Shown here: in pieces, positions 49,945 through 64,000 of the stretch
How positions within the stretch are numbered: position 1 is the first letter of the stretch
Layout of the letters: each line of letters begins with the position of its first letter
From: Candidatus Eiseniibacteriota bacterium
Lineage (GTDB): Bacteria; Eisenbacteria; RBG-16-71-46; CAIMUX01; VGJL01
Assembly (NCBI GenBank): GCA_963792585.1
Contig: CAWBWI010000003.1
Coordinates: 352,001 to 416,000, forward strand
Direction: 5' to 3'
DNA: 64,000 bases
Made by a program: the position numbers and the translations under genes
Notes under the pieces: model-generated
Database searches by the model: none
What the model saw: only the letters and a program-made list of their open reading frames with translations
What the model was told of the DNA's origin: nothing

Positions 49945-51702
49945 TCAGGGGGCGATGACGATCTTCGAGAAGCCGTCGTTGCCGTGGATCCAGTAGATTC
50001 CCGCGGCAACAGGCCTACCTCGCGCGTCCCTCCCGTCCCACCCATTTCCCGCAAGTGTGCGAATGATCCGCCCCGCGGAATCCAGGATCATCACGGGGCC
50101 AAGTCCGCCGAAGTGAATCGGCTCGCCCGCGACTGCGGGGTTGGGCCATGCGGTCACGCGCGGGATTCGGTCCTCCGCCATGCCATCACCAACCGACGCG
50201 GGATCGAGATGACCGAACCACCCGGTGTGATCGATGCCGAGGTGGTAATACGGCCACGGTGTGAGGGCAGCGTTGAATGTTCCCGGTGCGTCCCAGGCGT
50301 ACACCTGCTGCGAATAGCTCAAGACGATCTCGACGTTCCCGTCCGCGTCGATATCGGCGAGCGCGGGATTCGGGGGCGCCGCGGTTCCCATGTCCGCCGG
50401 CCAGCCCGGCATCAGGGTTCCGTCCGCCTGCAGGACGTAGGTCTTGCTGATCGCGCCGCTGGGACAGCCGAAAGGCGTGAAGCCCGAGCCCGATCCGACG
50501 ACGATGTCGACCCGACCGTCGCCGTTCACGTCACCTAGCACCGGCGAGGAGCCGTCAACCACCGCATTGGTGACGAAAGGCCAACCCGGCATGACGGTTC
50601 CATTCCGACGCCAGGCGTAGACGGTTCCACATTGACCGCAGCTTCCGGCAACGATATCGAGCGCGCCATCCCCATCGATGTCGCCGATGGCCGGAGAGGA
50701 TGAGATATGGGATCCGCTCGCCGGAGCACGGGGGATTGTATAAGGCCATCCCGCCATGTTGCTGCCGTCATAGCGCCAGACATAGATCTTCGCGTCCGTC
50801 TCATAGGTTCCGGTGATGATTTCCAGCGCGCCGTCTCCGTCGAGGTCGGCGAGGGCCGGAGAGGCGATCACCGAGGTGTGCGTCGCGGTGAGCTTCGGCC
50901 AACCCGGGAGCTGAGCGCCGCTATGATCGAACGCATAGACGCCGCCGGTGCTCGTCGCGCCGTAGTCGTACCACGAGCCGATAAAGACCTCGAGGTCGCC
51001 GTCTCCGTCGACGTCGCCTACGGCGGGGGAGCAGCGCTCGACAAAATTGCCGGCCTGCACGGGCCATCCCGAAACCACCGTTCCGTCCGCGTGCCATGCC
51101 TGGACGGTCCCGTCCTGGACCCCGACGATGATCTCGAGTCCCGCGTACGTCGGATCGAGATCGATCAAGGCAGCGGTGGATCGAACATTCGCGCCAACCG
51201 CGATCGGCCAGCCCGGGAGGGGCGTCCCGTTCGCGTGGAGCGCCCAGACCTGGTTGCCGCCGAAGTCACCGACCACGATCTCCGGAAGACCGTCGCCGTT
51301 GATGTCGGCGATCGATGGGGATGCGGCAATGAAGAAGCCCAGGTCGACCGGATATCCGCTCATCAGCGTCCCGTCTTGATGGAACACATAGAGATTGGCC
51401 GCGGACGTCAGGGTCCCGACGGCGATCTCGAGACCCGGATAGGTGGGGTCGAGATCCGCGCAGACGGGCGGGGAGCCTCCACCCTGAACGTTGACGGGCC
51501 AGCCCGGGTGGATCGGATACACAGGGAGAGCGGGCGGAATCGCCGAATTCACGGTCGGCCCGAAATCGGAACCGAGCATCTCGCGAGTCGTTCCCGCGGG
51601 AAGTGAAGACCGGGTCTGGAGCGTAGCGGCTGCGTTTGGCGCCGCGAAGGTCGTTGCGACCGTGGCTGCGATCGCGGTCAACACGAGCAATCGTCGAATC
51701 AT
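49945..51702 (-). CDS. Secreted FG-GAP repeat protein with short FlgD-like C-terminal domain
   Basis: Signal peptide, repeated SPAxGDxDGDGxxEI and PGWP units, C-terminal WPNP...DSAGR..WDGRD...GIY. Confidence 0.87.
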   Translation of the reverse strand: MIRRLLVLTAIAATVATTFAAPNAAATLQTRSSLPAGTTREMLGSDFGPTVNSAIPPALPVYPIHPGWPVNVQGGGSPPVCADLDPTYPGLEIAVGTLTSAANLYVFHQDGTLMSGYPVDLGFFIAASPSIADINGDGLPEIVVGDFGGNQVWALHANGTPLPGWPIAVGANVRSTAALIDLDPTYAGLEIIVGVQDGTVQAWHADGTVVSGWPVQAGNFVERCSPAVGDVDGDGDLEVFIGSWYDYGATSTGGVYAFDHSGAQLPGWPKLTATHTSVIASPALADLDGDGALEIITGTYETDAKIYVWRYDGSNMAGWPYTIPRAPASGSHISSSPAIGDIDGDGALDIVAGSCGQCGTVYAWRRNGTVMPGWPFVTNAVVDGSSPVLGDVNGDGRVDIVVGSGSGFTPFGCPSGAISKTYVLQADGTLMPGWPADMGTAAPPNPALADIDADGNVEIVLSYSQQVYAWDAPGTFNAALTPWPYYHLGIDHTGWFGHLDPASVGDGMAEDRIPRVTAWPNPAVAGEPIHFGGLGPVMILDSAGRIIRTLAGNGWDGRDARGRPVAAGIYWIHGNDGFSKIVIAP

Positions 51703-51880
51703 CGATGCCTCCCTGCGCCCGAAGCGAAGCAGCGCAGGGAGATGATACCACCACAAAACGGGAGGACGGTAGTTCCGGCATCCCGCAGCGGTGTAAGGAG
51801 GATGAATATGCTGCATTCATGGGTCGTTTTCCCCATGCAACCTAACAGCGGATTGCCGGCCATGGGCGAGGACTCACCCC

Positions 51881-51909
51881 TTGACGGCCCCCCGGGATTT
51901 CTCCAGAAT
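51881..51909 (+). promoter_or_regulatory. Sigma70-type promoter for the tRNA/enzyme operon
   Basis: TTGACG (51881-51886), 17-nt spacer, CAGAAT (51904-51909), about 90 nt upstream of the tRNA 5' end. Confidence 0.6.
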
Positions 51910-52001
51910 TGAATGGCGGGATTGAGACGTCTCTCGTGCGTCGTGGGAGTCAAGGAACCGCGACCCGCTTCGATCCCCCGATTCAGGTGCGTGATTTTTG
52001 T

Positions 52002-52307
52002 GCGTCCGTAGCTCAATCGGAAAGAGAAGTCCCACATACGACGGCCCGAGCACGGTGACGCGGACTGAGAAGCGAGGATATGTCGGTAATGCCTTCTGAC
52101 GTCCGGGTCTGGGGGCAGGAGGAGAGCCGGAACCTCTCTTCCCGACGGATCCCCGGTATTCCCTTTCCTGCTTCGCCTGCCTTCAGTATCGGCGCCACCT
52201 TTCTGAAGGCACGCATGTCACGTGTGAATGCCTCTCGTCGTGGGAAGCTCAAGAGCACCGGCCTTATAATCCGGAGACTGCGGGTTCGAGCCCCGTCGGA
52301 CGCACCA
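52002..52307 (+). tRNA. tRNA gene with anticodon UAU (reads AUA), split by a 229-nt insertion in the D-arm
   Basis: Joining 52002-52026 to 52256-52307 gives a 77-nt cloverleaf: acceptor GCGTCCG/CGGACGC, D-arm GCTC-AATCGGAAA-GAGC, anticodon arm CCGGC-CTTATAA-TCCGG (TAT at 52265-52267), 5-nt variable loop, T-arm GCGGG-TTCGAGC-CCCGT, A73, encoded CCA. Confidence 0.85.
52027..52255 (+). ncRNA. Structured intervening sequence inside the tRNA (intron-like, class unknown)
   Basis: AAGAG is repeated at both junctions. The ends pair (TCCCA..CGACG with CGTCGTGGGA). Internal stems include TGCCTTCAG/CTGAAGGCA (52178-52211), GGCAGGA/TCCTGCT and CGGAC/GTCCG. Confidence 0.6.
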
Positions 52308-52357
52308 CCCTACACCGATTCATCCACCCCGAGGTCGCCGATGGAGGAGAGTCTCTC

Positions 52358-53422
52358 GTGAAACGACCGTCCACTCGCCAGGAGACTCTGGAGCGGGACG
52401 GCGCGCGGGAGAGAATCCCCGCGGGCGTGGATCCCTCGACGCGTCTCGTCGATCTGTCGCCCTACTACGGACACCTGGAGTGCTTTCAGGCTCTCCGTCC
52501 ACTCCTGGTGAAGACGAATCGCTTCACGTATGCGCCCAGCTACCCGCCGAACGAGCGGATGCAGAACACGTGGCTTTCGATCGCACTGGAAGGAATCGCG
52601 ACGCTTGCCGCGCATCGCACCGGGGAGGTCTGGGAGGATCTCGCGATCGTCGGCACGGGCAACGGCCTCGACGCCGTGGGGATCTCCCGAATCGTCCAGC
52701 CGAGGTCGATCATCGCCTCCGATATCCACCCGATCGCACTACAAGCGGCACGATGGAACATCGCCAACTATGTTGCGGAGGATTGCCGGGTCGCGGTTGT
52801 ACAAAGCGATCTCTTCGATGGATATCCGCCCGGGGCCGCATTCGACCTCATCTATGAGAATCTCCCGAACATCCCGGACGAGAAGGAGCTATTCGACGGG
52901 GTCCGCAGCGCGAGCTGTTTCGCGCCACGCGCCCAGCGGGTCGCCACGACGTTCGACCGGCATCTCCTGACCCTCCACCACGATTTTCTCATCCAAGCGC
53001 ACACTCGTCTCCGCGACTCCGGTTGGATCGTGGGTGTGATCGGAGGACGGATCCCGGTGCAGACGATTCACGAGCTGTTTGCGGACGCCGGGTATCGGTC
53101 CACGGTCGCCGCCTTCGGCCTCAAGATCCAGAGCGAGGGCGATGTGGTTCTGCCCGCCTATGCCGCAGCAGAGCAAGAGACCGGCGTCTCCTTCGTCTAT
53201 TACCATCCGCTCGAGGCGTGTCTTGCGATCGTGCGTGAGCTGTCGCAGCCGGAGGATCTTGCCGCGCGCGCGGAATACGCGGGACTGCTCACGGAACGAC
53301 TTCGGCCCCTCCAGATTCCGTCGACCGAAGCCGTACGCCTCCACGCAGGAGGAGCGGCCGTTTGCCACACGGTCTATGTCATGGCGGCTCAGCGAATCTG
53401 TGGTGGTCCCGCGAATGGGTGA
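52358..53422 (+). CDS. SAM-dependent methyltransferase, methionine S-methyltransferase (MmtN/MMT)-like
   Basis: IVGTGNGLDA, ASDIHP, FDLIYENLPNIP, IGGRIP, LKIQSE, VCHTVYV. GGAGGAG ribosome-binding site before the GTG. Confidence 0.75.
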   Translation: MKRPSTRQETLERDGARERIPAGVDPSTRLVDLSPYYGHLECFQALRPLLVKTNRFTYAPSYPPNERMQNTWLSIALEGIATLAAHRTGEVWEDLAIVGTGNGLDAVGISRIVQPRSIIASDIHPIALQAARWNIANYVAEDCRVAVVQSDLFDGYPPGAAFDLIYENLPNIPDEKELFDGVRSASCFAPRAQRVATTFDRHLLTLHHDFLIQAHTRLRDSGWIVGVIGGRIPVQTIHELFADAGYRSTVAAFGLKIQSEGDVVLPAYAAAEQETGVSFVYYHPLEACLAIVRELSQPEDLAARAEYAGLLTERLRPLQIPSTEAVRLHAGGAAVCHTVYVMAAQRICGGPANG

Positions 53423-54182
53423 AGCCGACTACTTCAGGGAAGCCTCCGTCATCGATGCGATGACGGCGGAGCATCGGATTCTGTGGCGAACCCTCTTCGT
53501 GGCCTGTGGGCCGCACATCCGACCCGGCATGCGGGTTCTGGATTTCGGTTGCGGCAACGGTGGGATGCTCGCCTATCTCATGCTTGGGGACGGGAAGAAG
53601 TGGCCCGGGTGTCACTGCTCCCTTGGGATGGGGATCGATCGTCCCGAGCTGAACGCTGTGCTGGCGATGGCCGGCGACCGGCTTGGCCGGGAGTTGCCCG
53701 TCGTGTTCACTTCCGCTTCTCCCCGCTCGTTCCCTGGCCAATTCGATCTCGCCCTTTCGCACGAGGTCATCTACCTCCTCTCGGACCTCGCCGAGACGTT
53801 CCAAGGGTTGCGCGCCGCGTTGAGGCCGGGCGGCGTGATCGCCCTGGCGACGGGATGCCACAGCGAGAACCTCCTCTATCCAAGATGGACGGAAGCTCTT
53901 GCGCGGGTGGGGGTGTGTGCCCACCCGTACGGGATCCCGGACTACGTTCGGGCGCTCCGCGATGCCGGCTTCGAGGATGTCGGCAGTGCCAGCATGCGGA
54001 TGGAGGTCGATGACTACGAGGAATGGCTAGAGGTCCGGGGAGACCCTGAGCCGAATCCCGAGTGGTTCTCCACGTCCGAGGAAGAGCGGCGGTATTACAC
54101 GGAGTTCGGCAAGACGCTGATCACCGCTCGCCGGGCGTTGGCCGAGGAGCCGTCGACTGTACCCCCGCGGGAAGGGCCGTGA
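53415..54182 (+). CDS. Class I SAM-dependent methyltransferase (255 aa)
   Basis: VLDFGCGNGG, FDLALSHEVIY, LRPGG. Overlaps both neighbours. Confidence 0.88.
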   Translation: MGEADYFREASVIDAMTAEHRILWRTLFVACGPHIRPGMRVLDFGCGNGGMLAYLMLGDGKKWPGCHCSLGMGIDRPELNAVLAMAGDRLGRELPVVFTSASPRSFPGQFDLALSHEVIYLLSDLAETFQGLRAALRPGGVIALATGCHSENLLYPRWTEALARVGVCAHPYGIPDYVRALRDAGFEDVGSASMRMEVDDYEEWLEVRGDPEPNPEWFSTSEEERRYYTEFGKTLITARRALAEEPSTVPPREGP

Positions 54183-56245
54183 CCGTCGCGCCCGACTATA
54201 TCCCCGAGACCATCGAGGCCAAGTGGCAACGGTTCTGGGAGGAGCGGGGGACGTTCCATGCGCATGCCTGCGGGGCGAGCAAGTTCTACTGCTACAATCC
54301 CGCGCCCTATGTCACCGGCACCCTTCATATGGGTCATGTCCGCAATTACACCTACGGTGATTTCCTCAGCAAGTTCCGGCGTCTTCACGGAGCGAACGTC
54401 CTCTACACGATCGGCTTCGACGCATTCGGCGTGCCCACAGAGGTGGCGGCCATGCGGAAACGGTTGGACCCGGCCGCCTGGACGGCCGGCTGCATCGGGG
54501 AGATGAAGAAGCAGCTTGTTCGAATGGGGTTTGGATTCGATTGGCGACGCTCCTTCTCCACGGCCGATGCGGACTACTACAAGTGGACCCAGTGGATCTT
54601 CATCGAGATGTTTCGGGAGGGCATCGTCTACGAACGGGAAGCGGAGACGCTCTGGTGTCCGCAGTGCGACATGGCCCTCGCCAAGTCGCTCACGGTCGAC
54701 GGCAGGTGCTTCCTGTGCAACATCGCAGTCGAGACGCGCGTCACAAGCCAGTGGTTCCTTCGCATCTCGCGCTATCTGGACCGTCTCAGGGATGATCTCG
54801 CCGAGGTCAGGGACCTCAACGGCCAGGCGCGTGCGGGACAGGAGAGTCTCCTCGCCTTCCGCAGCCTCTGGGGTGTCTGGTTGATCGAGCCGAAGACCGG
54901 GACCAAGGTTCTCGCCTGCATGGATTCTCCCGATGACTGGTCCAGGCATCTCGTGTTGGCGGTTCACCCTCAGGATTGGCCGACGCGACGGGCGCTCGCG
55001 GGGATCGCCGTCGAGCCGATCTCGGGCAGGTCCTTCGCAGTCGTCGTCGATCCTATGCTCGACTCGCTCTATCTGGATCAACCCGTGCTGAAGATTGTCC
55101 CGCGGGAGGGCGGAGCGCAGGCAATTGAACATGCGCCGGCGGATGGGATCTTCCCGCTCACGGTGAACGAACAGAAGGACTTCTCTGTTTCGCGCCAGCG
55201 ACTCTGGGGAACGCCCATCCCGATGGTCCGGTGTGAGACGTGCGGAGTCGTCCCGGTGGAGGCCGCGGATCTTCCCGTGCGGTTGCCGCGGATCGAAGCC
55301 GATGGCTCCGGACGGCTGCGGCGAACCGAACCCGGGTGGGACGTTCGCGCGTGCCCTTCATGCAAACGGCCGGCAATGCTCGATCCCCAGGTCATGGATT
55401 GCCACTTCGATGCGCTATGGCACTACTGGCGCCCCTGTGTTGGCTCCACGGCGGAGTTTCCTTTCGACTCGGACGAAGCCCGGTATTGGATGCCGGTCGA
55501 CCAGATCCAATTCGGCAGGGACACGATTCCGTTCCTCCTGACCCTGCGGCTGTTCACGAAGTTCCTGAAGGACCGCGGGCTCTCGGATTGCTCGGAGTTC
55601 GCCCGCGAGATGCTTGCGCACGGTCTGATCCTCATGGGCAATCGGAAGATGAGCAAGCACATCGGCAACGTCGTCGATCCGGAGCAAATGATCACCCGTT
55701 TCGGGGCGGACAGTCTTCGGTTCTATGTCCTCGCCAGGAGCGATCCCAGGAGCGATTATAGCTGGTCGGAGGCGAGCCTCGCGCGCTATCACGAGCTCTT
55801 GAAGCACTACTACGAGGATCTGGACCCTGAGACTTCGAGGGAGACAGCGGCGGCGGGAATGGAGGGATCGAAGACGGGATCCGCGGGGAAGTACCTGTCG
55901 ATCTTTCTCACAAAGGTGTTGCGCGAGGTGGAGGTACTGGAGTCGAGCGTTGAAAGTGGACGGTTCGACATCTACGCGCGGGCGGTTGCGCGAATCCTGG
56001 AAGCGCTTCATCTGTTCAAGGAGCGGTACTACACGCAGGCGGGATCGTGGGGGCGGGAAGCGTGGGGGAAGTGCGCGGAGCAGTCCATTCTCTACCTCGC
56101 CCCGATCGCGCCACACATCGCGGAGGAGTGCTGGGAGCGAAGCGGCCGAGCGCCGGGAGTCTTCGCGGGAGTGCGTTGGCCATCAGACGGCCCGATGGTC
56201 GTTCGAGATTTGGTGGAGGAAGCGAAGAGGCGGAGGCAGTCGTGA
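54179..56245 (+). CDS. Divergent leucyl-tRNA synthetase paralog (class Ia, 688 aa)
   Basis: IEAKWQRFW, PYVTGTLHMGHVRNY (HIGH), GFDAFG, YYKWTQWIF, SRQRLWGTPIP, KMSKHIGNVVDP (KMSKS), GADSLR, LAPIAPHIAEECW. GTGA overlap with the upstream gene. Confidence 0.9.
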   Translation: MTVAPDYIPETIEAKWQRFWEERGTFHAHACGASKFYCYNPAPYVTGTLHMGHVRNYTYGDFLSKFRRLHGANVLYTIGFDAFGVPTEVAAMRKRLDPAAWTAGCIGEMKKQLVRMGFGFDWRRSFSTADADYYKWTQWIFIEMFREGIVYEREAETLWCPQCDMALAKSLTVDGRCFLCNIAVETRVTSQWFLRISRYLDRLRDDLAEVRDLNGQARAGQESLLAFRSLWGVWLIEPKTGTKVLACMDSPDDWSRHLVLAVHPQDWPTRRALAGIAVEPISGRSFAVVVDPMLDSLYLDQPVLKIVPREGGAQAIEHAPADGIFPLTVNEQKDFSVSRQRLWGTPIPMVRCETCGVVPVEAADLPVRLPRIEADGSGRLRRTEPGWDVRACPSCKRPAMLDPQVMDCHFDALWHYWRPCVGSTAEFPFDSDEARYWMPVDQIQFGRDTIPFLLTLRLFTKFLKDRGLSDCSEFAREMLAHGLILMGNRKMSKHIGNVVDPEQMITRFGADSLRFYVLARSDPRSDYSWSEASLARYHELLKHYYEDLDPETSRETAAAGMEGSKTGSAGKYLSIFLTKVLREVEVLESSVESGRFDIYARAVARILEALHLFKERYYTQAGSWGREAWGKCAEQSILYLAPIAPHIAEECWERSGRAPGVFAGVRWPSDGPMVVRDLVEEAKRRRQS

Positions 56246-57042
56246 ATCGGGAAGTCATGTGCGACCACTTGGTTCGGTTGATCGACGATCTGGAACGGTG
56301 CTCCGGCGGGGCGCCGCGCGACCTGCTCCGCGCCGCGTTGTGCATCGAGCACGTCGTGATGTCCGATCTACTGCCTCCGGAGGAGGAGGACGCCGTCTTT
56401 GCGGACCCGAGGATCGCCGTGCGGGCGTCCGGTTGTCAGAGGATCTTCTCGGATCTCGAGAGCACCATCGAGCGGAGCATGGCCGAGGTTGTGCGGCTCG
56501 GCGGGGCCGAAACGACTTGGGCCCGGGAGAACGTGAGCCAGCACTACATTGCGCGTTACGAGTACCTTTCCCAGTGCGAGATCGAGCTGGCGCGGATGGG
56601 ACCGGAGGATCGTGTCCTCTTCATCGGGAGCGGGTACCTGCCGATCACGGCGTTCGAATACGTCCGTCAGTCCGGCTGCAAGGTTGACTGCGCCGACTTC
56701 GTCCCGGAAGCGATCGATTGCGCCCGAAAGATCACGGAACGGATCGGGATGACGGAGCGTGTGCGGTTCTTCCAGACGCGAGGGGAGCAGCACGATCCCT
56801 CCCCATACGACGTCATCCTCGTAGGTGTGCTTGCACTGCCGAAACGGGCGATCCTGTCCCACCTGGATGCGGGGGCGAAGGGCGGATGCCGTGTGCTGTG
56901 TCGGACCACCTACGGGCTGCGGCAACTCGTCTACCAGCAAGCGTCCTACGAGGTGCGGAGCCTCCGTCGACTCGTTCCGGGAGAACGAAGCGTGGCCCGT
57001 GGGGAGCGGGTCATTTCTGCGGAGCTCTTGAGGGCTTCTTGA
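56242..57042 (+). CDS. Nicotianamine synthase-like (CntL-like) SAM-dependent aminocarboxypropyl transferase (266 aa)
   Basis: YIARYEYL..CE, VLFIGSGYLPITA, YDVILVGVLA.PK..IL, CRTTYGLRQLVY. GTGA overlap with the synthetase. Confidence 0.8.
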   Translation: MNREVMCDHLVRLIDDLERCSGGAPRDLLRAALCIEHVVMSDLLPPEEEDAVFADPRIAVRASGCQRIFSDLESTIERSMAEVVRLGGAETTWARENVSQHYIARYEYLSQCEIELARMGPEDRVLFIGSGYLPITAFEYVRQSGCKVDCADFVPEAIDCARKITERIGMTERVRFFQTRGEQHDPSPYDVILVGVLALPKRAILSHLDAGAKGGCRVLCRTTYGLRQLVYQQASYEVRSLRRLVPGERSVARGERVISAELLRAS

Positions 57043-57306: not shown

Positions 57307-58029
57307 ATGATGAGGAAGGTCGCCCTGCTCCTTGTTCTGAGTTCCATTTTCGGAGGCGGCGCGCTCGCCGCCAATCCCAGCCTGAGTGCGGGAGGTGGCG
57401 GCAGCCCGAACGTCCTCAACTCCGGCCGAGAAGTTATCTGGAGTGAGCCGCCTGACCTCGAAGGTCTGATCGCCTCGTCGGAAGTCATCGGGCAATTCGC
57501 CCTTGAGACGGAAATCGCCAACGACTTCTATATCTCCTGGGATACCTGTATCGGCGGCGCTCGCTGGTGGGGCGGTTATTACAACAACAACGGCTGTAGC
57601 GACATTGGCATCGCGACAAACTGGAACCTCCGATTCTACGATGACGGCGGCTGCGTTCCGTTGACGACTCTTTCCGAGACGGTGGGCGCCTTCGCAAACG
57701 AGACTTTCATTTACTGCCAGGGCGGGTTCTACCCGGTCTTCCAGTACGAAGCCTACACATCATACGTCTACATCACGGCGAACACCCTGTACTGGTTCGG
57801 CGCACAGGCATCCGATCACGCGTTTCCGCCGCAGGTGGGCCGTATCGCCTCCGCATGGGTCGTCGGCTGCGACACGGTGTTCAAGAGTGCCTACTTCTCG
57901 TACCCCGACTGGACGCCCGGCATCGACGTGTTCGGTGTCGCCTTCGATGCCAGCCAGGAGTTCGAGAACTGGTGCATAGTTCCGACCGTGACGACCACGT
58001 GGGGCGCCGTGAAGGGGCTCTACCGGTAG
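57307..58029 (+). CDS. Array copy 1: secreted protein with C-terminal TTWGAVKGLYR motif
   Basis: AAGGAGG ribosome-binding site, signal peptide, WSEPPDL, IANDF, RWWGGY, YWF. One ATA at 57976-57978. Confidence 0.9.
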   Translation: MMRKVALLLVLSSIFGGGALAANPSLSAGGGGSPNVLNSGREVIWSEPPDLEGLIASSEVIGQFALETEIANDFYISWDTCIGGARWWGGYYNNNGCSDIGIATNWNLRFYDDGGCVPLTTLSETVGAFANETFIYCQGGFYPVFQYEAYTSYVYITANTLYWFGAQASDHAFPPQVGRIASAWVVGCDTVFKSAYFSYPDWTPGIDVFGVAFDASQEFENWCIVPTVTTTWGAVKGLYR

Positions 58030-58333
58030 GTCCGGCGAATGGGGAGGTCCGCTGTGGCGCAGCGGGCTTCAGGTGGCACACAAAGAGTTTGGTGGCGTTG
58101 GGGCGCTCCCGTCGATGCGGCGGGGGCGCTTCTTGCATCCGGCCGCGGCGGCCCTCGGTGGACTCCATCCCCGGGACGGTAGATAATCGACGGCAACAAT
58201 TCCCGACGGCTCTTGGGTCGGGGGTGCAGGCGGCTCGGCGGTCAAACGAGGACGGGCACCGCACCGTGACGCCCGCCTGGTCCCGCGCGTGATCGTCGTT
58301 GTGTGCTGTGACAAACCACAGGAGGGAGTCCTC

Positions 58334-59047
58334 ATGATGATACAGATCGCCCTTGTCCTGAGTCTGGTCGTTGCCAGCGGAGCGCTTGCCATCAACCCAT
58401 CCCTGAGCGGGGGCGGTGGCGGTACGAATGTTCTGAACTCCGGTCGCGAAGTCGTCTGGAGCGAGCCACCGAACCTCGACGGTTTGATCGGGTCGTCGGA
58501 GGTTATTTGGGAGTTCTATGTCGTGACGGAACTTGCCAACGATTTCTTCCTCACTACGAACCACGGCCTCGACATCGCTCGCTGGTGGGGTGGCTATTTT
58601 TACAACAGCAGTTGCGGCGATGTCGGTGTCGCCACAAATTGGAACCTAACATTCTACGATGATGTCGGTTGCATACCGGAACATGTGCTTTACGAGCGTA
58701 TGGGCGTCGATGCGAACGAGACTTTCGTCTATTGCCAAAGCGACGTCTACCCGATCTTCAGCTACGAGGTCGCCGATCTGAACTTCACAGCTCAGGCGAA
58801 TACCCGATACTGGTTCGTCGCGCAGGCAGCTGACCATACGTTCCCGCCCCAGGTAGGTCGCGTCGCTTCCGCCGGAGTCGTCGGCTGCGAGACCGTCTTC
58901 AGAGGGTCCTACTTCTCGTACAACTACTGGACTCCCGTTATCGATGTGTTCGGCGTGGCGTTTGATGCCAGCCAGGAGTTCGAGGAGTATCACATAGTCC
59001 CTACTGAAAGGACCACGTGGGGCGCCGTGAAGGAGCTCTACCGGTAG
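58334..59047 (+). CDS. Array copy 2 (most divergent)
   Basis: Same motifs, ending TTWGAVKELYR. ATA at 58994-58996, and also at 58340 and 58673. Confidence 0.9.
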   Translation: MMIQIALVLSLVVASGALAINPSLSGGGGGTNVLNSGREVVWSEPPNLDGLIGSSEVIWEFYVVTELANDFFLTTNHGLDIARWWGGYFYNSSCGDVGVATNWNLTFYDDVGCIPEHVLYERMGVDANETFVYCQSDVYPIFSYEVADLNFTAQANTRYWFVAQAADHTFPPQVGRVASAGVVGCETVFRGSYFSYNYWTPVIDVFGVAFDASQEFEEYHIVPTERTTWGAVKELYR

Positions 59048-59350
59048 GTCCGGCGAATGGAGAGGTCCGCTGTGGCGCAGCGGGCTTCAGGTGGCACACA
59101 AAGAGTTTGGTGGCGATGAGGCGCTTCCGTCGTTGCGGCGGGGCGCTTCTCACGTCCAGTCGCCACAGGCTTGGGTGGACATCGGCCTCGCAGGAGCAGA
59201 TACTCGTAGGCGGCGAATCCCTGCGGCTCTCGAGCCGGGGGATCCGACGGACTGCTGGTCGAGGGAGCCCGCCACCCACCGACCGTCGGTCCGGCCATGG
59301 ACCTGTTCGTCGTTGAGTCTCGTGACAGCCGAAAGGAGGGAATCCTCGCT

Positions 59351-60079
59351 ATGAGGAAGGTCGCCCTTGTCCTTGTCCTGAGCTGCGTCGCCGGGGGCGG
59401 CGCGCTGGCCGTCAACCCGAGCATCATGGCCGGCGGAGAGGGCACGCAGAACGTCCTAGACTCCGGTCGAGATCCCGTCTGGAGTGAGCCGCCCGATCTA
59501 GAGGGTCTGATCGCTTCGTCGGAAGTTATCGGGCAGGTCGGCCTCGAGACGGAAATCGCAAATGACTTCTACATCGACCATGACGAGTACATCAGTATCG
59601 CCCGCTGGTGGGGCGGATACTACAACAACAACGGCTGCAGTGACATCGGGTACGGCACGAACTGGAATCTGCGCCTCTACGATGACTTGGGCTGTGTTCC
59701 GGGGTCAGTGCTTTCCGAGACTCTAGGGCTGTCGGTGATCGAGGCCTTCGTATACTGCCAGGCTGGCCTCTACCCGGTCTTCGAATACTGGGCATGCGTC
59801 GAGTTCTGGGTCGCGGGGAATACATTGTACTGGTTCGGTGCACAAGCATCCGATCACACGTTCCCACCGCAGGTCGGTCGCGTGGCCTCTGCCGGAGTCG
59901 TCGGCTGCGACTCCGTATTCAAGAGCGCCTACTTCTCGTATCCGGATTGGACGCCCGGTATCGACGTCTTCGGGGTCGCATTCGACGCGAGTCAGGAATT
60001 CGGCAATGGTATCTGCATAGACGGACCTGTCCCTAATCAGCGGACCACGTGGGGCGCCGTGAAGGGGCTCTACCGGTAG
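59351..60079 (+). CDS. Array copy 3
   Basis: Same motifs. One ATA at 60017-60019. Confidence 0.9.
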   Translation: MRKVALVLVLSCVAGGGALAVNPSIMAGGEGTQNVLDSGRDPVWSEPPDLEGLIASSEVIGQVGLETEIANDFYIDHDEYISIARWWGGYYNNNGCSDIGYGTNWNLRLYDDLGCVPGSVLSETLGLSVIEAFVYCQAGLYPVFEYWACVEFWVAGNTLYWFGAQASDHTFPPQVGRVASAGVVGCDSVFKSAYFSYPDWTPGIDVFGVAFDASQEFGNGICIDGPVPNQRTTWGAVKGLYR

Positions 60080-60381
60080 GTCCGGCGAATGGGGAGGTCC
60101 GCTGTGGCGCAGCGGGCTTCAGGTGGCACACAAAGAGTTTGGTGGCGATGAGGCGCTTCCGCCGTTGCGGCGGGGGCGCTTCTTGCGTCCAGCCGCACAG
60201 GCTTCGGTGGACGTCGGCCTCACAGGAGCAGATACTCGTAGGCGGCGAATCAAAGCGGTCACTGAGCCGGGGGATCCGACGGACTGCTGGTCGAAGGAGC
60301 CCGCCTCCCACCAACCGTCGGTCCGGCCATGGATCTGTTCGCCGTTAGTCTCGTGACAGCCGAAAGGAGGGAATCCTCGCC

Positions 60382-61098
60382 ATGAGGAAGGTCGCCCTTG
60401 TCCTTGTCCTGAGCTTCGTCGCCACAGGCGGCGCGCTCGCCATCAACCCGGGCATCATGGCTGGCGGGGGGGGCACGCAGAACGTCCTCAACTCCAGCCG
60501 AGATGTTGTCTGGAGTGAGCCGCCCGACCTCGAAGGTCTGATTGCCTCGTCAGAAGTCATCGGGCAATTGGCTCTCGAGACGGAAATCGCAAACGATTTC
60601 TACCTTCCCTGGGACTACTGGATCTGCGTCGCCCGCTGGTGGGGTGGTTACTACAACAACAACGGCTGCGGCGATGTCGGCATCGCGACGAACTGGAACG
60701 TTCGGTTCTACGATGACGGCGGCTGCGTGCCTCTTACCCTGCTGAACGAGACGCTCGGCGCGTTCGCGAACGAGACCAGCGTCTATTGCCAGGATGGCTT
60801 CTACCCGATCTTTAGGTACGAAGTTGACGTCAGCATGCCGATCACCGGCAACACCCTGTACTGGTTCGGCGCGCAGGCTGCCGACCATGCGTTCCCGCCG
60901 CAGTGCGGCCGCGTTGCCTCCGGCTCCGTCGTCGGTTGCGACACGGTGTTCAAGAGTGCCTACTTCTCGTACTCCGACTGGACGCCCGGCATCGACGTGT
61001 TCGGTGTTGCGTTCGACGCCAGCCAGGAGTTCGTGATCGGGTGCATAGTTCCAACCGTCACGACCACGTGGGGCGCCGTGAAGGGGCTCTACCGGTAG
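60382..61098 (+). CDS. Array copy 4
   Basis: Same motifs. One ATA at 61045-61047. Confidence 0.9.
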   Translation: MRKVALVLVLSFVATGGALAINPGIMAGGGGTQNVLNSSRDVVWSEPPDLEGLIASSEVIGQLALETEIANDFYLPWDYWICVARWWGGYYNNNGCGDVGIATNWNVRFYDDGGCVPLTLLNETLGAFANETSVYCQDGFYPIFRYEVDVSMPITGNTLYWFGAQAADHAFPPQCGRVASGSVVGCDTVFKSAYFSYSDWTPGIDVFGVAFDASQEFVIGCIVPTVTTTWGAVKGLYR

Positions 61099-61406
61099 GT
61101 CCGGCGAATAGAGAGGTCCGCTGTGGCGCAGCGGGCTTCAGGTGGCACATAAAGAGTTTGGTGGCGATGGGGCGCTCCCGTCGATGCGGCGGGGGCGCTT
61201 CCTGCATCCGCCGCGCAGGACGACGTTTGACCCCCCGTCCCAATGAGCGGATACTCATAGGCGGCAGATCCTACCCGGCATGTGTGCCGACTGGATCTGA
61301 CGGTCCTGCGATTGTGGTGAGACCCGCCGCGTGGGCAGCAGCCAGTCCGGTCCGGGACTTGTTCGCACGTGAGTTCCGCAACAAGCGAAAGGAGGGAATC
61401 CTCGCC

Positions 61407-62129
61407 ATGAGGAAGGTCGCCCTTGTCCTTGCGCTGAGTTTCGTCGCCGCAGGCGGTGCACTCGCCGTCAATCCGAGCATCATGGCCGGTGGGGGGGGCA
61501 CGCAGAACGTCCTCAACTCCGGCCGTGACGTGGTCTGGGGTGAGCCGCCCGATCTCGATGGCCTCATCGCCTCGTCAGAAGTCATCGGACAACTCGCTCT
61601 CGAGACGGAAATCGCAAATGACTTCTGGGTTGATCATGACGGCTCCATCGATTGTGCCTGCTGGTGGGGAGGGTACTACAATAACAACGGCTGCGGTGAC
61701 ATCGGTATCGCTACGAACTGGAACCTCCGGTTCTACGATGACGGTGGCTGCGTTCCGCTGTCGGTCCTCGCCGAGACGGTGGGCGCCTTCGCTTACGAGA
61801 CCAGTGTGTACTGTCAGGGTGGGCTCTACCCGGTCTTCCAGTACGAAGCTGGCGTCGACTTCCAGATCACGGGGAACACATTGTACTGGTTCGGCGCGCA
61901 GGCATCCGACCACACGTTTCCGCCGCAGGTAGGCCGTATCGCCTCCGCAGGGGTCGTCGGCTGCGACTCCGTGTTCAAGAGTGCCTACTTCTCGTACCCC
62001 GACTGGACGCCTGGTATCGACGTATTCGGTGTCGCCTTCGATGCGAGTCAGGAGTTTAGGGAATACTGCATACTACCTGTCGGCACGCAGCGGACCACGT
62101 GGGGCGCCGTGAAGGGGCTCTACCGGTAG
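61407..62129 (+). CDS. Array copy 5
   Basis: Same motifs. One ATA at 62070-62072. Confidence 0.9.
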   Translation: MRKVALVLALSFVAAGGALAVNPSIMAGGGGTQNVLNSGRDVVWGEPPDLDGLIASSEVIGQLALETEIANDFWVDHDGSIDCACWWGGYYNNNGCGDIGIATNWNLRFYDDGGCVPLSVLAETVGAFAYETSVYCQGGLYPVFQYEAGVDFQITGNTLYWFGAQASDHTFPPQVGRIASAGVVGCDSVFKSAYFSYPDWTPGIDVFGVAFDASQEFREYCILPVGTQRTTWGAVKGLYR

Positions 62130-62432
62130 GTCCGGCGAATGGGGAGGTCCGCTGTGGCGCAGCGGGCTTCAGGTGGCACACAGAGAGTTTGGTGGCGATG
62201 AGGCGCTTCCGCCGTTGCGGCGGGGGCGCTTCTCACGTCCGGCCGCAGCAGGCTTCGGTGGACATCGGCCTCACAGGAGCAGATACTCGTAGGCGGCGAA
62301 TCCCTGCGGCTCTCGGGCCGGGGGATCCGACGGACTGCTGGTCGAGGAGCCCGCCTCCCACCGACCCTCGGTCCGGCCATGGACCTGCTCGTCGTTGGGT
62401 CTCGTGACAGCCGAAAGGAGGGAATCCTCGCC

Positions 62433-63158
62433 ATGAGGAAGGTCGCCCTTGTCCTTGTCCTGAGCTTCGTCGCCACAGGCGGCGCGCTCGCCATCAACCC
62501 GAGCCTGAGTGCGGGGGGTGGCGGCAGCCCGAACGTCCTCAACTCCGGCCGATACGTCATCTGGAGTGAGCCGCCTGACCTCGAAGGTCTGATCGCCTCG
62601 TCGGAAGTCATCGGGCAATTCGCCCTCGAGACGGAAATCGCCAACGACTTCTACGTCCCCTGGGATACCTGTGTTGGTCTCGCTCGCTGGTGGGGAGGCT
62701 ACTACAATAACGCCGGTTGCGGTGACATCGGTGTCGCTACGAACTGGAACCTCCGATTCTACGATGACGGTGGCTGCGTTCCGTTGTCGATCCTGTCCGA
62801 GACGGTGGGGGTCTTCGCGAACGAGACCTTCATCTACTGCCAGGGCGGGTTCTATCCGGTCTACCAGTACGAAACCGCCGCAGTATACGTCGCCGTCACG
62901 GCGAACACGCTGTACTGGTTCGGCGCGCAGGCATCGGATCACGCGTTTCCGCCGCAGGTGGGCCGTATCGCTTCTGCATCGGTCGTCGGTTGCGACACGG
63001 TGTTCAAGAGTGCCTACTTCTCGTATCCCGACTGGACGCCTGGCATCGACGTGTTCGGTGTCGCCTTCGATGCCAGTCAGGAATTCGAGAACTACAATTG
63101 CGGCATAGTTCCAACTCAGAAGACCACGTGGGGCGCCGTGAAGGGGCTCTACCGGTAG
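62433..63158 (+). CDS. Array copy 6
   Basis: Same motifs. One ATA at 63105-63107. Confidence 0.9.
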   Translation: MRKVALVLVLSFVATGGALAINPSLSAGGGGSPNVLNSGRYVIWSEPPDLEGLIASSEVIGQFALETEIANDFYVPWDTCVGLARWWGGYYNNAGCGDIGVATNWNLRFYDDGGCVPLSILSETVGVFANETFIYCQGGFYPVYQYETAAVYVAVTANTLYWFGAQASDHAFPPQVGRIASASVVGCDTVFKSAYFSYPDWTPGIDVFGVAFDASQEFENYNCGIVPTQKTTWGAVKGLYR

Positions 63159-63462
63159 GTCGGGCGAATGGAGAGGTCCGCTGTGGCGCAGCGGACTTCA
63201 GGTGGCACACAGAGAGTTTGGTGGCGTTGGGGCGTCCCTGTCGTTGTGACGGGGGCGCTTCATACGTCCAGCCGCCACAGGCTTCGTTGGACATCGGCCA
63301 CACAGGAGCAGATACTCGTGGGCGGCGAATCCCTGCGGCTCTCGGGCCGGGGGATCCGACGGACTGCTGGTCGAGGGAGTCCGCCTCCCACCGACCGTCG
63401 GTCCGGCCATGGACCTGCTCGTCGTTGGGTCTCGTGACAGCCGAAAGGAGGGAATCCTCGCC

Positions 63463-64000
63463 ATGAGGAAGGTCGCCCTTGTCCTTGTCCTGAGCTTCGT
63501 CGCCACAGGCGGCGCGCTCGCCGTCAACCCGAGCCTCATGGCCGGTGGGGGGGGCACGCAGAACGTCCTCAACTCCGGCCGAGATACCTACTGGAGTGAG
63601 CCGCCCGATCTGGAGGGTCTGATCGCGTCCTCGGAAGTCATCGGGCAGTTCGGCCTCGAGACGGAAATCGCAAACGACTTCTATCTCACCCAGAACGCCA
63701 CTGTCTGGGCCGTCTGGTGGGGTGGGTACTACAACAACAATGGTTGTGGCGACATCGGTGTTGCAACGAACTGGAATCTTCGGTACTACGACGACGGTGG
63801 CTGTGTTCCGCTGAACACGGTTTCCGAAGGTCTCGGCGCGTATGCGAACGAGAACTTCGTCTATTGTCAGGGCGGGTTCTACCCGATCTTCCGGTACACG
63901 GCCGACGTCTGCTGCGCGGTTCTCGCGAATACGCTGTACTGGTTCGGCGCGCAGGCAGCCGATCACGCGTTCCCGCCTCAGGTCGGCCGCGTAGCCTCTG
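63463..64000 (+). CDS. Array copy 7, truncated by the window end
   Basis: ATGAGGAAGGTCGCC start and an open frame with WSEPPDLEG, IANDF, WWGGY and YWFGAQ to the end of the window. Confidence 0.88.
   Translation, partial: MRKVALVLVLSFVATGGALAVNPSLMAGGGGTQNVLNSGRDTYWSEPPDLEGLIASSEVIGQFGLETEIANDFYLTQNATVWAVWWGGYYNNNGCGDIGVATNWNLRYYDDGGCVPLNTVSEGLGAYANENFVYCQGGFYPIFRYTADVCCAVLANTLYWFGAQAADHAFPPQVGRVAS

Follow-up and report, generated by a model that had tools for sequence, protein, structure and literature searches.

In the pyl cluster, a special tRNA, its own synthetase and the enzymes that make the amino acid lie together, and a programmed codon occupies a fixed position in the target genes; it was this cluster layout of tRNA, synthetase and biosynthetic genes that led to pyrrolysine. 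The introns described in tRNA genes belong to group I in bacteria, to group II in plastids and to the bulge-helix-bulge type in archaea, with D-arm positions known from archaea and plastids. In the portions available of the sources, PMC9437257 gives background on PylRS, and PMC10404621 and PMC9437257 describe the ProRSx/tRNAProA/ProT/ProN set of Streptomyces, in which a synthetase paralog sits beside a tRNA with the anticodon of another amino acid. The engineered tRNA tags in the available part of PMC7590224 sit on the V-arm, not on the D-loop.

Here we describe a locus within a 64,000-nt stretch of genome G000 (the window) at which a real, conserved and expressed giant tRNA heads an apparently undescribed aminoacylation operon (Table 1). 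A sequence-only reading of the same DNA had singled out the tRNA and the sequence that interrupts it; it overlooked the operon, which encodes a synthetase paralog and three S-adenosylmethionine (SAM) enzymes, and the secreted proteins marked by AUA, both of which change what the element is. We found no report of the giant RNA, the operon or such D-loop arms in the literature searched, which comprised few subscription papers and no supplements.

Table 1. Features of the locus, in positions of the window
Feature	Position	Strand	Remarks
Sigma-70-type promoter	51881..51909	+	About 90 nt upstream of the RNA; 1 found against 0.1 expected
Giant tRNA-like RNA	52002..52307	+	306 nt; A73, encoded CCA, G18G19, A15-U48, intact T-loop
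Extra arm off the D-loop, 227 nt	52024..52250	+	Constrained fold; identity to the L198 and L204 arms
Two neighbouring top-hairpin loops	52101-52106 and 52127-52133 (feature 52101..52133)	+	Invariant in three homologs, mutually complementary
Anticodon UAU, reads AUA	52265..52267	+	ARAGORN call on the 77-nt product
MT1, SAM methyltransferase	52358..53422	+	Among solved structures, MmtN, a methionine S-methyltransferase, has the nearest fold
MT2, class I SAM methyltransferase	53415..54182	+	Best PDB sequence matches are phosphoethanolamine N-methyltransferases
LeuRS paralog	54179..56245	+	HMGH, KMSK and D80 kept; amino-acid pocket changed
Nicotianamine-synthase/CntL-like enzyme	56242..57042	+	Similar to thermonicotianamine synthase and to CntL
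Seven genes in tandem for secreted TWG-tail proteins	57307..64000	+	Last gene extends beyond the window end
ATA codon just past the domain end, paralog 1	57976..57978	+	Equivalents at 58994, 60017, 61045, 62070, 63105 and G000:C3:416120 (outside the window)

A tRNA with an extra arm on the D-loop

Removing 229 nt (52027-52255) from the gene restores a 77-nt cloverleaf with CCA, as the sequence-only reading had proposed, and ARAGORN called this product tRNA-Ile(UAU), with a C31.U39 mismatch. The boundary ambiguity that it had noted within AAGAG amounts to six cut positions with one identical 77-nt product, and the AGCTCAA duplication and the mutual pairing of the insert ends that it had described are both present. 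Standard tRNA finders do miss the gene, as it had foreseen: ARAGORN run without introns reported no tRNA in the window, and Rfam matched the 3' half only, at 35 bits. When defined as an arm rather than as an intron, the extra sequence comprises 227 nt, and in a constrained fold it builds a 3-bp closing helix followed by a long irregular stem and a branched top. The acceptor branch is 7/5. The whole 306-nt RNA folds no better than shuffled sequences (z = -1.33), with the cloverleaf-plus-arm fold at most 1.1 kcal/mol above the minimum, and a cloverleaf with the insert as fifth arm lay 0.6-2.6 kcal/mol above the minimum in all five RNAs folded. Judged by their sequence, the two top-hairpin loops are candidates for a kissing contact, which a variant at 52131 in an RNA contig would weaken. 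In the leader, 51929-51955 repeats part of the 3' end of the arm in two exact 10-nt matches and could compete for the basal stem of the arm; conservation of this repeat was not seen.

Parts of the stretch are contained in 20 sequencing runs from 14 studies, of which we compared one DNA run (X1) and three RNA runs (X14, X17 and X20). The DNA contigs showed no differences over 51700-52037 and 52175-52347, so that they span the whole 3' junction but extend no more than 11 nt across the 5' junction. RNA contigs from the three RNA runs, which stem from three studies, were near-identical to the locus (0-5 differences) over 52011-52301, 52019-52305 and 52094-52287; they crossed both junctions unspliced and covered nothing outside the tRNA ends. 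Because independent DNA contigs match and RNA contigs cross both junctions, the locus is not a misassembly. The bare flanks in the RNA runs give a weak hint of end trimming. Where RNA contigs have loose ends before the 3' part, these are long foreign sequences and not the 5' part. Loose ends at 52067, 52188 and 52252 (X14, X17 and X20) belong to contigs whose RNAs are related but differ in the sequence of the arm, and two of these contigs carry at least 225 nt ahead of a near-identical 3' part, and such ends point to further family members.

Homologs, which the sequence-only reading had proposed to collect, were found at three further loci (L198, L204 and G005) with the same layout. A search for the UAU 3'-half pattern without a normal D-loop returned 32 metagenome loci, two of which (L198 and L204) are full homologs that also lead into MT1; their arms are 77% identical to that of G000, and in 7 of the 105 predicted pairs both partners differ, although a count of pairs says little when only two arms are effectively independent. 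Searching with MT1, the gene next to the RNA, identified two of 206 genomes of the phylum, G000 and G005. In G005, which belongs to another genus, a UAU tRNA with C33 lies directly upstream of the operon, with a D-loop arm of about 175 nt and no junction repeat, and a similar -35/17/-10 arrangement is visible upstream of it; this RNA adopts the cloverleaf-plus-arm fold unconstrained (z = -2.9). All three homologs have the UAU anticodon, G005 alone having been found without selecting for it. The UAU pattern recovered only G000 from the 206 phylum genomes and missed G005 through C33, so that pattern counts are lower bounds.

Searches further afield yielded little. The exact 3'-half pattern had no match in genome and metagenome collections; the arm DNA gave only matches shorter than 40 nt in the 206 phylum genomes outside G000 and none in plasmid and phage records; and in viral contigs the arm motif gave two chance coding matches, with no junction pattern and no MT1 relatives. 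The UAU pattern without a normal D-loop was also found at seven loci in genomes, one of which has an unrelated D-loop arm: L180:711-960 (G206:C559, an Acidimicrobiales MAG) encodes a tRNA(UAU) with an arm of about 175 nt and no CCA, lies on a 14.6-kb contig where nothing points to the operon, and is possibly an independent case. The pattern is present in 4 of 401 Acidimicrobiia genomes, and the one followed, that of L180, has ordinary synthetase matches only. Separately, L179, L187, L188, L190-L192, L195, L196, L201, L205, L211 and L216-L218 are tRNA-Ile(UAU) genes of eukaryote or giant-virus type with D-loop hairpin inserts of 30-60 nt, many of them bounded by GT or GC and AG, which may be mRNA-type introns.

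Intron, insertion or retained arm

None of the described intron classes accounts for the insert, in agreement with the sequence-only reading, which had seen no group I core, no group II domain V and no clean bulge-helix-bulge. The Rfam check that it had called for, with E values up to 10 admitted, matched the insert to no intron family and to none of 6S, RNase P and SRP. A group I intron follows a 5' exon that closes with U and itself terminates in G, and at each of the six possible junctions the last base of exon 1 is A or G; a group I core was rejected on the Rfam result and because the arms of G000 and G005 are unrelated, and a resemblance to R/S-like group I sequence near the 5' end of the arm is in the wrong position and not conserved. 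For group II, no junction option has a GUGYG start and an AY end, and Rfam gave no domain V match. An archaeal-type intron was rejected because the closing helix has 3 bp, inspection revealed no bulge-helix-bulge and no bulge pattern is shared with G005; EndA (PF01974) was not found in the genome, which is 84% complete. A fusion of 6S, RNase P, SRP or Y RNA to the tRNA was dismissed for want of an Rfam match in the arm, and the 6S and RNase P genes of the genome sit elsewhere. A MITE or other mobile insertion was likewise rejected, as the insert is present in one copy in G000, G005 has no junction repeat and plasmid and phage records hold no copy. We read the AAGAG repeat, given that the G005 arm has no junction repeat, not as a target-site duplication but as a product of an arm closing helix that appears to resemble the D-stem. 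No sequence common to the G000 and G005 arms was detected (z = -0.9).

We think, with some reserve, that the D-loop arm is retained in the RNA. Among the three options offered by the sequence-only reading, a retained domain of a giant tRNA fits best, and a new intron type gained no support, given no spliced form among the RNA contigs, no kept arm sequence, no group I or II ends and no EndA. An intron of an undescribed, protein-dependent kind would make the 306-nt RNA a stable precursor, whose slow or regulated excision would yield a 77-nt tRNA(UAU) charged by the synthetase paralog or by IleRS. Such an intron would suit the clean excision to a canonical cloverleaf, the length (about 177 to 235 nt as cut) and sequence of the arm, which vary freely as in protein-spliced introns, the presence of RtcB in the genome and the better fit of a normal-sized tRNA to the ribosome. 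However, no exon-exon joint was present among 11 RNA contigs of the three runs (contigs cannot prove that a form is missing, and the sampling of short, modified tRNAs is poor), no exon-1 loose end was found at exon 2, and the genome and insert offered neither EndA nor a bulge-helix-bulge by inspection, group I or II ends or an Rfam match; we therefore consider this intron rather unlikely. The view that a mobile element landed in a tRNA gene now in decay, or that the assembly is in error here, could draw on the 5-nt direct repeat at the junctions and on the fact that the assembly has indel errors and probably a foreign stretch elsewhere, but is largely refuted and extremely improbable in view of the single genome copy, the conserved homologs, the independent DNA and RNA contigs and the absence of a junction repeat in G005. 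The possibilities that the sequence-only reading had held against itself, a known intron, a MITE or a decayed gene, fell away on the Rfam result, the copy number, the homologs and the RNA contigs.

A synthetase operon and AUA codons in secreted proteins

Four overlapping genes follow the RNA, and G005 has them in the same order with 41-46% protein identity, so that tRNA, synthetase and biosynthetic genes are clustered in both genomes. The model of MT1 (pLDDT 84) gave MmtN as all of its top nine Foldseek matches (E = 1.7e-13, 17% identity). The last enzyme scores under the curated CntL cut-off; enzymes of the nicotianamine synthase/CntL kind transfer the aminocarboxypropyl group of SAM. The synthetase paralog has the LeuRS fold, lacks about 170 aa of the length of LeuRS, has a short C-terminus and scored 391 bits against a leuS cut-off of 548. 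Compared with Thermus LeuRS (1h3n), it has M40P, F41A, F501H, Y507H, a gap at H541 and H545F, at positions that we take to form the leucine pocket, and the new residues, which differ from those of LeuRS, are nearly fixed across 14 aligned paralogs. The class I hallmarks (HIGH, KMSKS and the amino-group Asp) are present in the paralog, with HMGH or HLGH and KMSK in 14 of 14 aligned paralogs and the Asp motif in 13. An ordinary bacterial LeuRS was rejected on the replaced pocket residues, the short length and the score below the cut-off, and the housekeeping LeuRS is encoded elsewhere in the genome. According to the available part of PMC9135737, MmtN is a methionine S-methyltransferase whose Met-binding residues are E127, R132 and E250.

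We found 26 relatives of MT1, one labelled Ca. Eisenbacteria by its source, and 13 close relatives of the synthetase, and contigs of matching length suggest that at least seven carry relatives of both. No EF-Tu-like gene was found beyond two copies. Other LeuRS-like proteins with altered pocket motifs, such as P0045 and P0048, occur among the best 150 matches and, by their sequences, may mark further systems of the same type. The RNA and the synthetase paralog are very probably partners.

The operon is followed by genes for secreted proteins, and all seven paralogs of the array have ATA in the variable linker between domain and TWG tail; in the seventh the ATA is shifted, with ATC at the old position. 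The domain of these seven has no Pfam match. About 105 G000 proteins end in a tail of the form TWG-x-hydrophobic-K/R-x-x-aromatic-R, which is likely a sorting signal. Within the family of the array proteins, 11 of 25 members in G000 have ATA within 10 codons of the domain end, four of them on another contig and with a Cys-rich repeat after the ATA, and none of the seven members examined in G001, G002 and G004, which have no operon, does. Inside the domain of the 11, Ile is encoded by ATC 77 times, by ATT 10 times and by ATA once. The linker ATA has been kept despite a median four-fold divergence of 0.52, and not one of 75 invariant columns keeps a single A/T-ending codon (the divergence and tree analysis covered 22 of the 25 members, three distant or partial ones being omitted); the 11 paralogs could owe their ATA to a single event.

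G005 provided an independent comparison in other protein families, based on 58 tail genes of the stretches covered (69 pattern matches), with G004 as control (39 genes, 49 pattern matches). ATA accounted for 5 of 32 linker Ile codons in G005 versus 7 of 365 upstream in the body (p = 0.0013, with no correction for the number of rare codons compared) and was the top rare codon there, and both tail genes adjoining the G005 operon, which belong to a different family, have one ATA at the domain end; G004 had none among 18 linker Ile codons. ATA is the sole rare codon enriched in the linkers of both operon genomes, and G000 without the seven tandem genes shows no enrichment (1 of 44). Across 35 genomes of the order, the ratio of in-frame to out-of-frame matches was 10:5 for the pair of genomes with the operon and 5:25 for the remainder (p = 0.0014, rising to 0.10 with the seven tandem genes counted once), the in-frame five coming from four genomes without detected MT1 and including one with a stop. 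A second group of four tail-protein genes, at G000:C6:627189-645745, has ATA 19 codons before the tail and may comprise further targets. Arm-mRNA pairing (-58.5) was not above control (-60.6, s.d. 9.9), and no shared mRNA hairpin follows the ATA. We consider it quite likely that the AUA sites are targets of the giant tRNA.

TilS and tRNA-Ile2 already provide for the reading of AUA: G000 encodes TilS, as do four relatives, and a tRNA-Ile2-like CAU gene whose isotype is our own reading. In rough gene calls, ATA makes up 1,239 of about 69,500 Ile codons (1.8%). Genome-wide reassignment of AUA was rejected, because in an alignment to 800 kb of G004 it faces I, V or L much as ATT does (77 of 98 cases versus 499 of 578). 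The operon's own genes have no ATA (0 of 72 and 0 of 68 Ile codons), as expected by chance. The stretch G000:C3:1-100000 differs from the rest of the genome (GC 0.70, ATA 0.2% of Ile codons) and is probably a misjoined foreign stretch; given this odd composition, an intact tRNA-Ile(UAU) that lies there, at C3:75042-75118, may come from a different organism. IleRS-like and ValRS-like genes (G000:C3:267843-270328 and C4:58414-60626) lie in frameshifted pieces, probably through long-read indel errors.

A possible aminoacylation system and its described counterparts

The RNA contigs support a first step in which the RNA would be transcribed, trimmed at both ends to about 306 nt and accumulated with its arm in place. 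We infer that it would then be charged by the LeuRS paralog, not by the host IleRS, the arm taking the place of a long variable arm and serving as a handle for the synthetase or the SAM enzymes. S- or N-methylation together with aminocarboxypropyl transfer, on the free amino acid or on the tRNA, would produce a non-standard amino acid, at a first guess a methionine-derived residue such as S-methylmethionine; we are evenly divided on whether the residue is non-standard. At AUA just after the folded domain of selected secreted proteins, the giant tRNA would compete with tRNA-Ile2, so that part of each protein would receive the special residue, either within the chain or at a new C-terminus. Should translocation be blocked by the large arm, the domain would end in the special residue and the sorting tail would not be made, and linkers would tolerate an ambiguous reading of AUA. 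That a dedicated tRNA keeping its D-loop arm forms the RNA part of an operon-encoded orthogonal aminoacylation system is a reading that we hold with about as much belief as doubt. Its furthest extension is tentative and, on balance, doubtful: an expansion of the code at a sense codon, in which the giant tRNA and the LeuRS-derived synthetase would deliver a SAM-built amino acid outside the 22 known to the domain-end AUA, as an internal residue or as a tag that ends the chain and so costs it the sorting tail.

Several observations count against the orthogonal system. The ribosome may have no room for a 227-nt arm at the elbow, C33 in G005 and the C31.U39 mismatch in G000 are both poor for decoding, the operon is present in only two of 206 genomes, AUA aligns as Ile in general, the ATA contrast weakens once the tandem genes are collapsed and has in-frame matches in genomes without detected MT1, and MT1 shares only 17% identity with MmtN; the choice of sites is explained neither by an extra EF-Tu-like gene nor by an mRNA hairpin or arm-mRNA pairing. 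A large arm, C33 and a 31-39 mismatch would suit an RNA kept off the ribosome, and the RNA could instead be a non-ribosomal carrier onto which the paralog loads an amino acid and on which the SAM enzymes build a small metabolite, such as a nicotianamine- or staphylopine-like chelator or a sulfonium compound, the anticodon being an identity element and the ATA pattern inherited chance. Relatives of NAS/CntL and of MmtN make small molecules (for MmtN, in the available part of PMC9135737), and the ATA signal drops when paralogs are collapsed. Against such a carrier, which we judge unlikely, ATA is the one rare codon enriched in the linkers of G000 and G005, the protein families differ between the two, and G004 lacks the enrichment; ATA-marked genes flank the operon in both genomes; and the neighbours examined include no transporter, peptide ligase or dehydrogenase. 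The RNA might also act as a bldA-like switch that carries plain Ile and, upon induction of the operon, boosts translation of the secreted proteins that contain AUA, or the codon might mark an interdomain pause, as would befit a codon that is rare among Ile codons and aligns as Ile, and ordinary tRNA-Ile(UAU) genes are common in viral contigs. This would leave the altered synthetase and the three SAM enzymes unexplained, other rare codons are not enriched at the sites, and TilS and tRNA-Ile2 are present, which makes a switch or pause very unlikely in our estimate.

If the orthogonal system is real, it would be a natural tRNA-synthetase pair with its own biosynthetic genes and target sites, a pyl-like layout acting on a sense codon whose five parts could all be moved to a laboratory host, and the pair could serve as a tool for AUA recoding. 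Even without a new amino acid, there remain tRNAs of 250-310 nt with a fifth arm on the D-loop that tRNA finders miss, and genes hidden in this way can mark whole pathways.

The locus resembles pylTSBCD in combining tRNA, synthetase and enzymes able to make an amino acid in one cluster, and perhaps also in a codon programmed at a fixed position of its targets. It differs in its class I, LeuRS-derived synthetase, in a sense codon, AUA, shared with tRNA-Ile2, in SAM-dependent enzymes and in a tRNA of 306 nt. The nearest solved folds or sequences are MmtN for MT1, nicotianamine synthase/CntL for the last enzyme and bacterial LeuRS for the synthetase. Like tRNA introns, the arm can be removed to restore a cloverleaf; unlike them, it came with no matching ends, core, Rfam match or endonuclease, and with no spliced product among the RNA contigs. 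Viral tRNA-Ile(UAU) genes (80 loci fetched of more than 120 matches) have an intact D-arm in 79 of 79 with upstream DNA, whereas the G000 RNA has its D-loop arm. As in Mycoplasma mobile and phages, UAU is used for AUA, but M. mobile is without tilS in the available part of PMC3575796 and G000 has it. The selC* tRNA-Cys/CysRS*/SelB* system, in the available part of PMC7609411, likewise pairs an odd tRNA with a dedicated, domain-trimmed class I synthetase; its acceptor branch is 8/4, and it employs a standard amino acid and a separate elongation factor, whereas the RNA here is 7/5 and no extra EF-Tu-like gene was seen. ProRSx, as far as the available parts of its descriptions go, shares a synthetase paralog adjoining an anticodon-mismatched tRNA, further operon enzymes and probably an ambiguous sense codon, but keeps Pro and mistranslates proteome-wide with a tRNA of normal size; the G000 locus combines a rebuilt pocket and a giant D-loop arm with a codon that seems to be placed in chosen genes.
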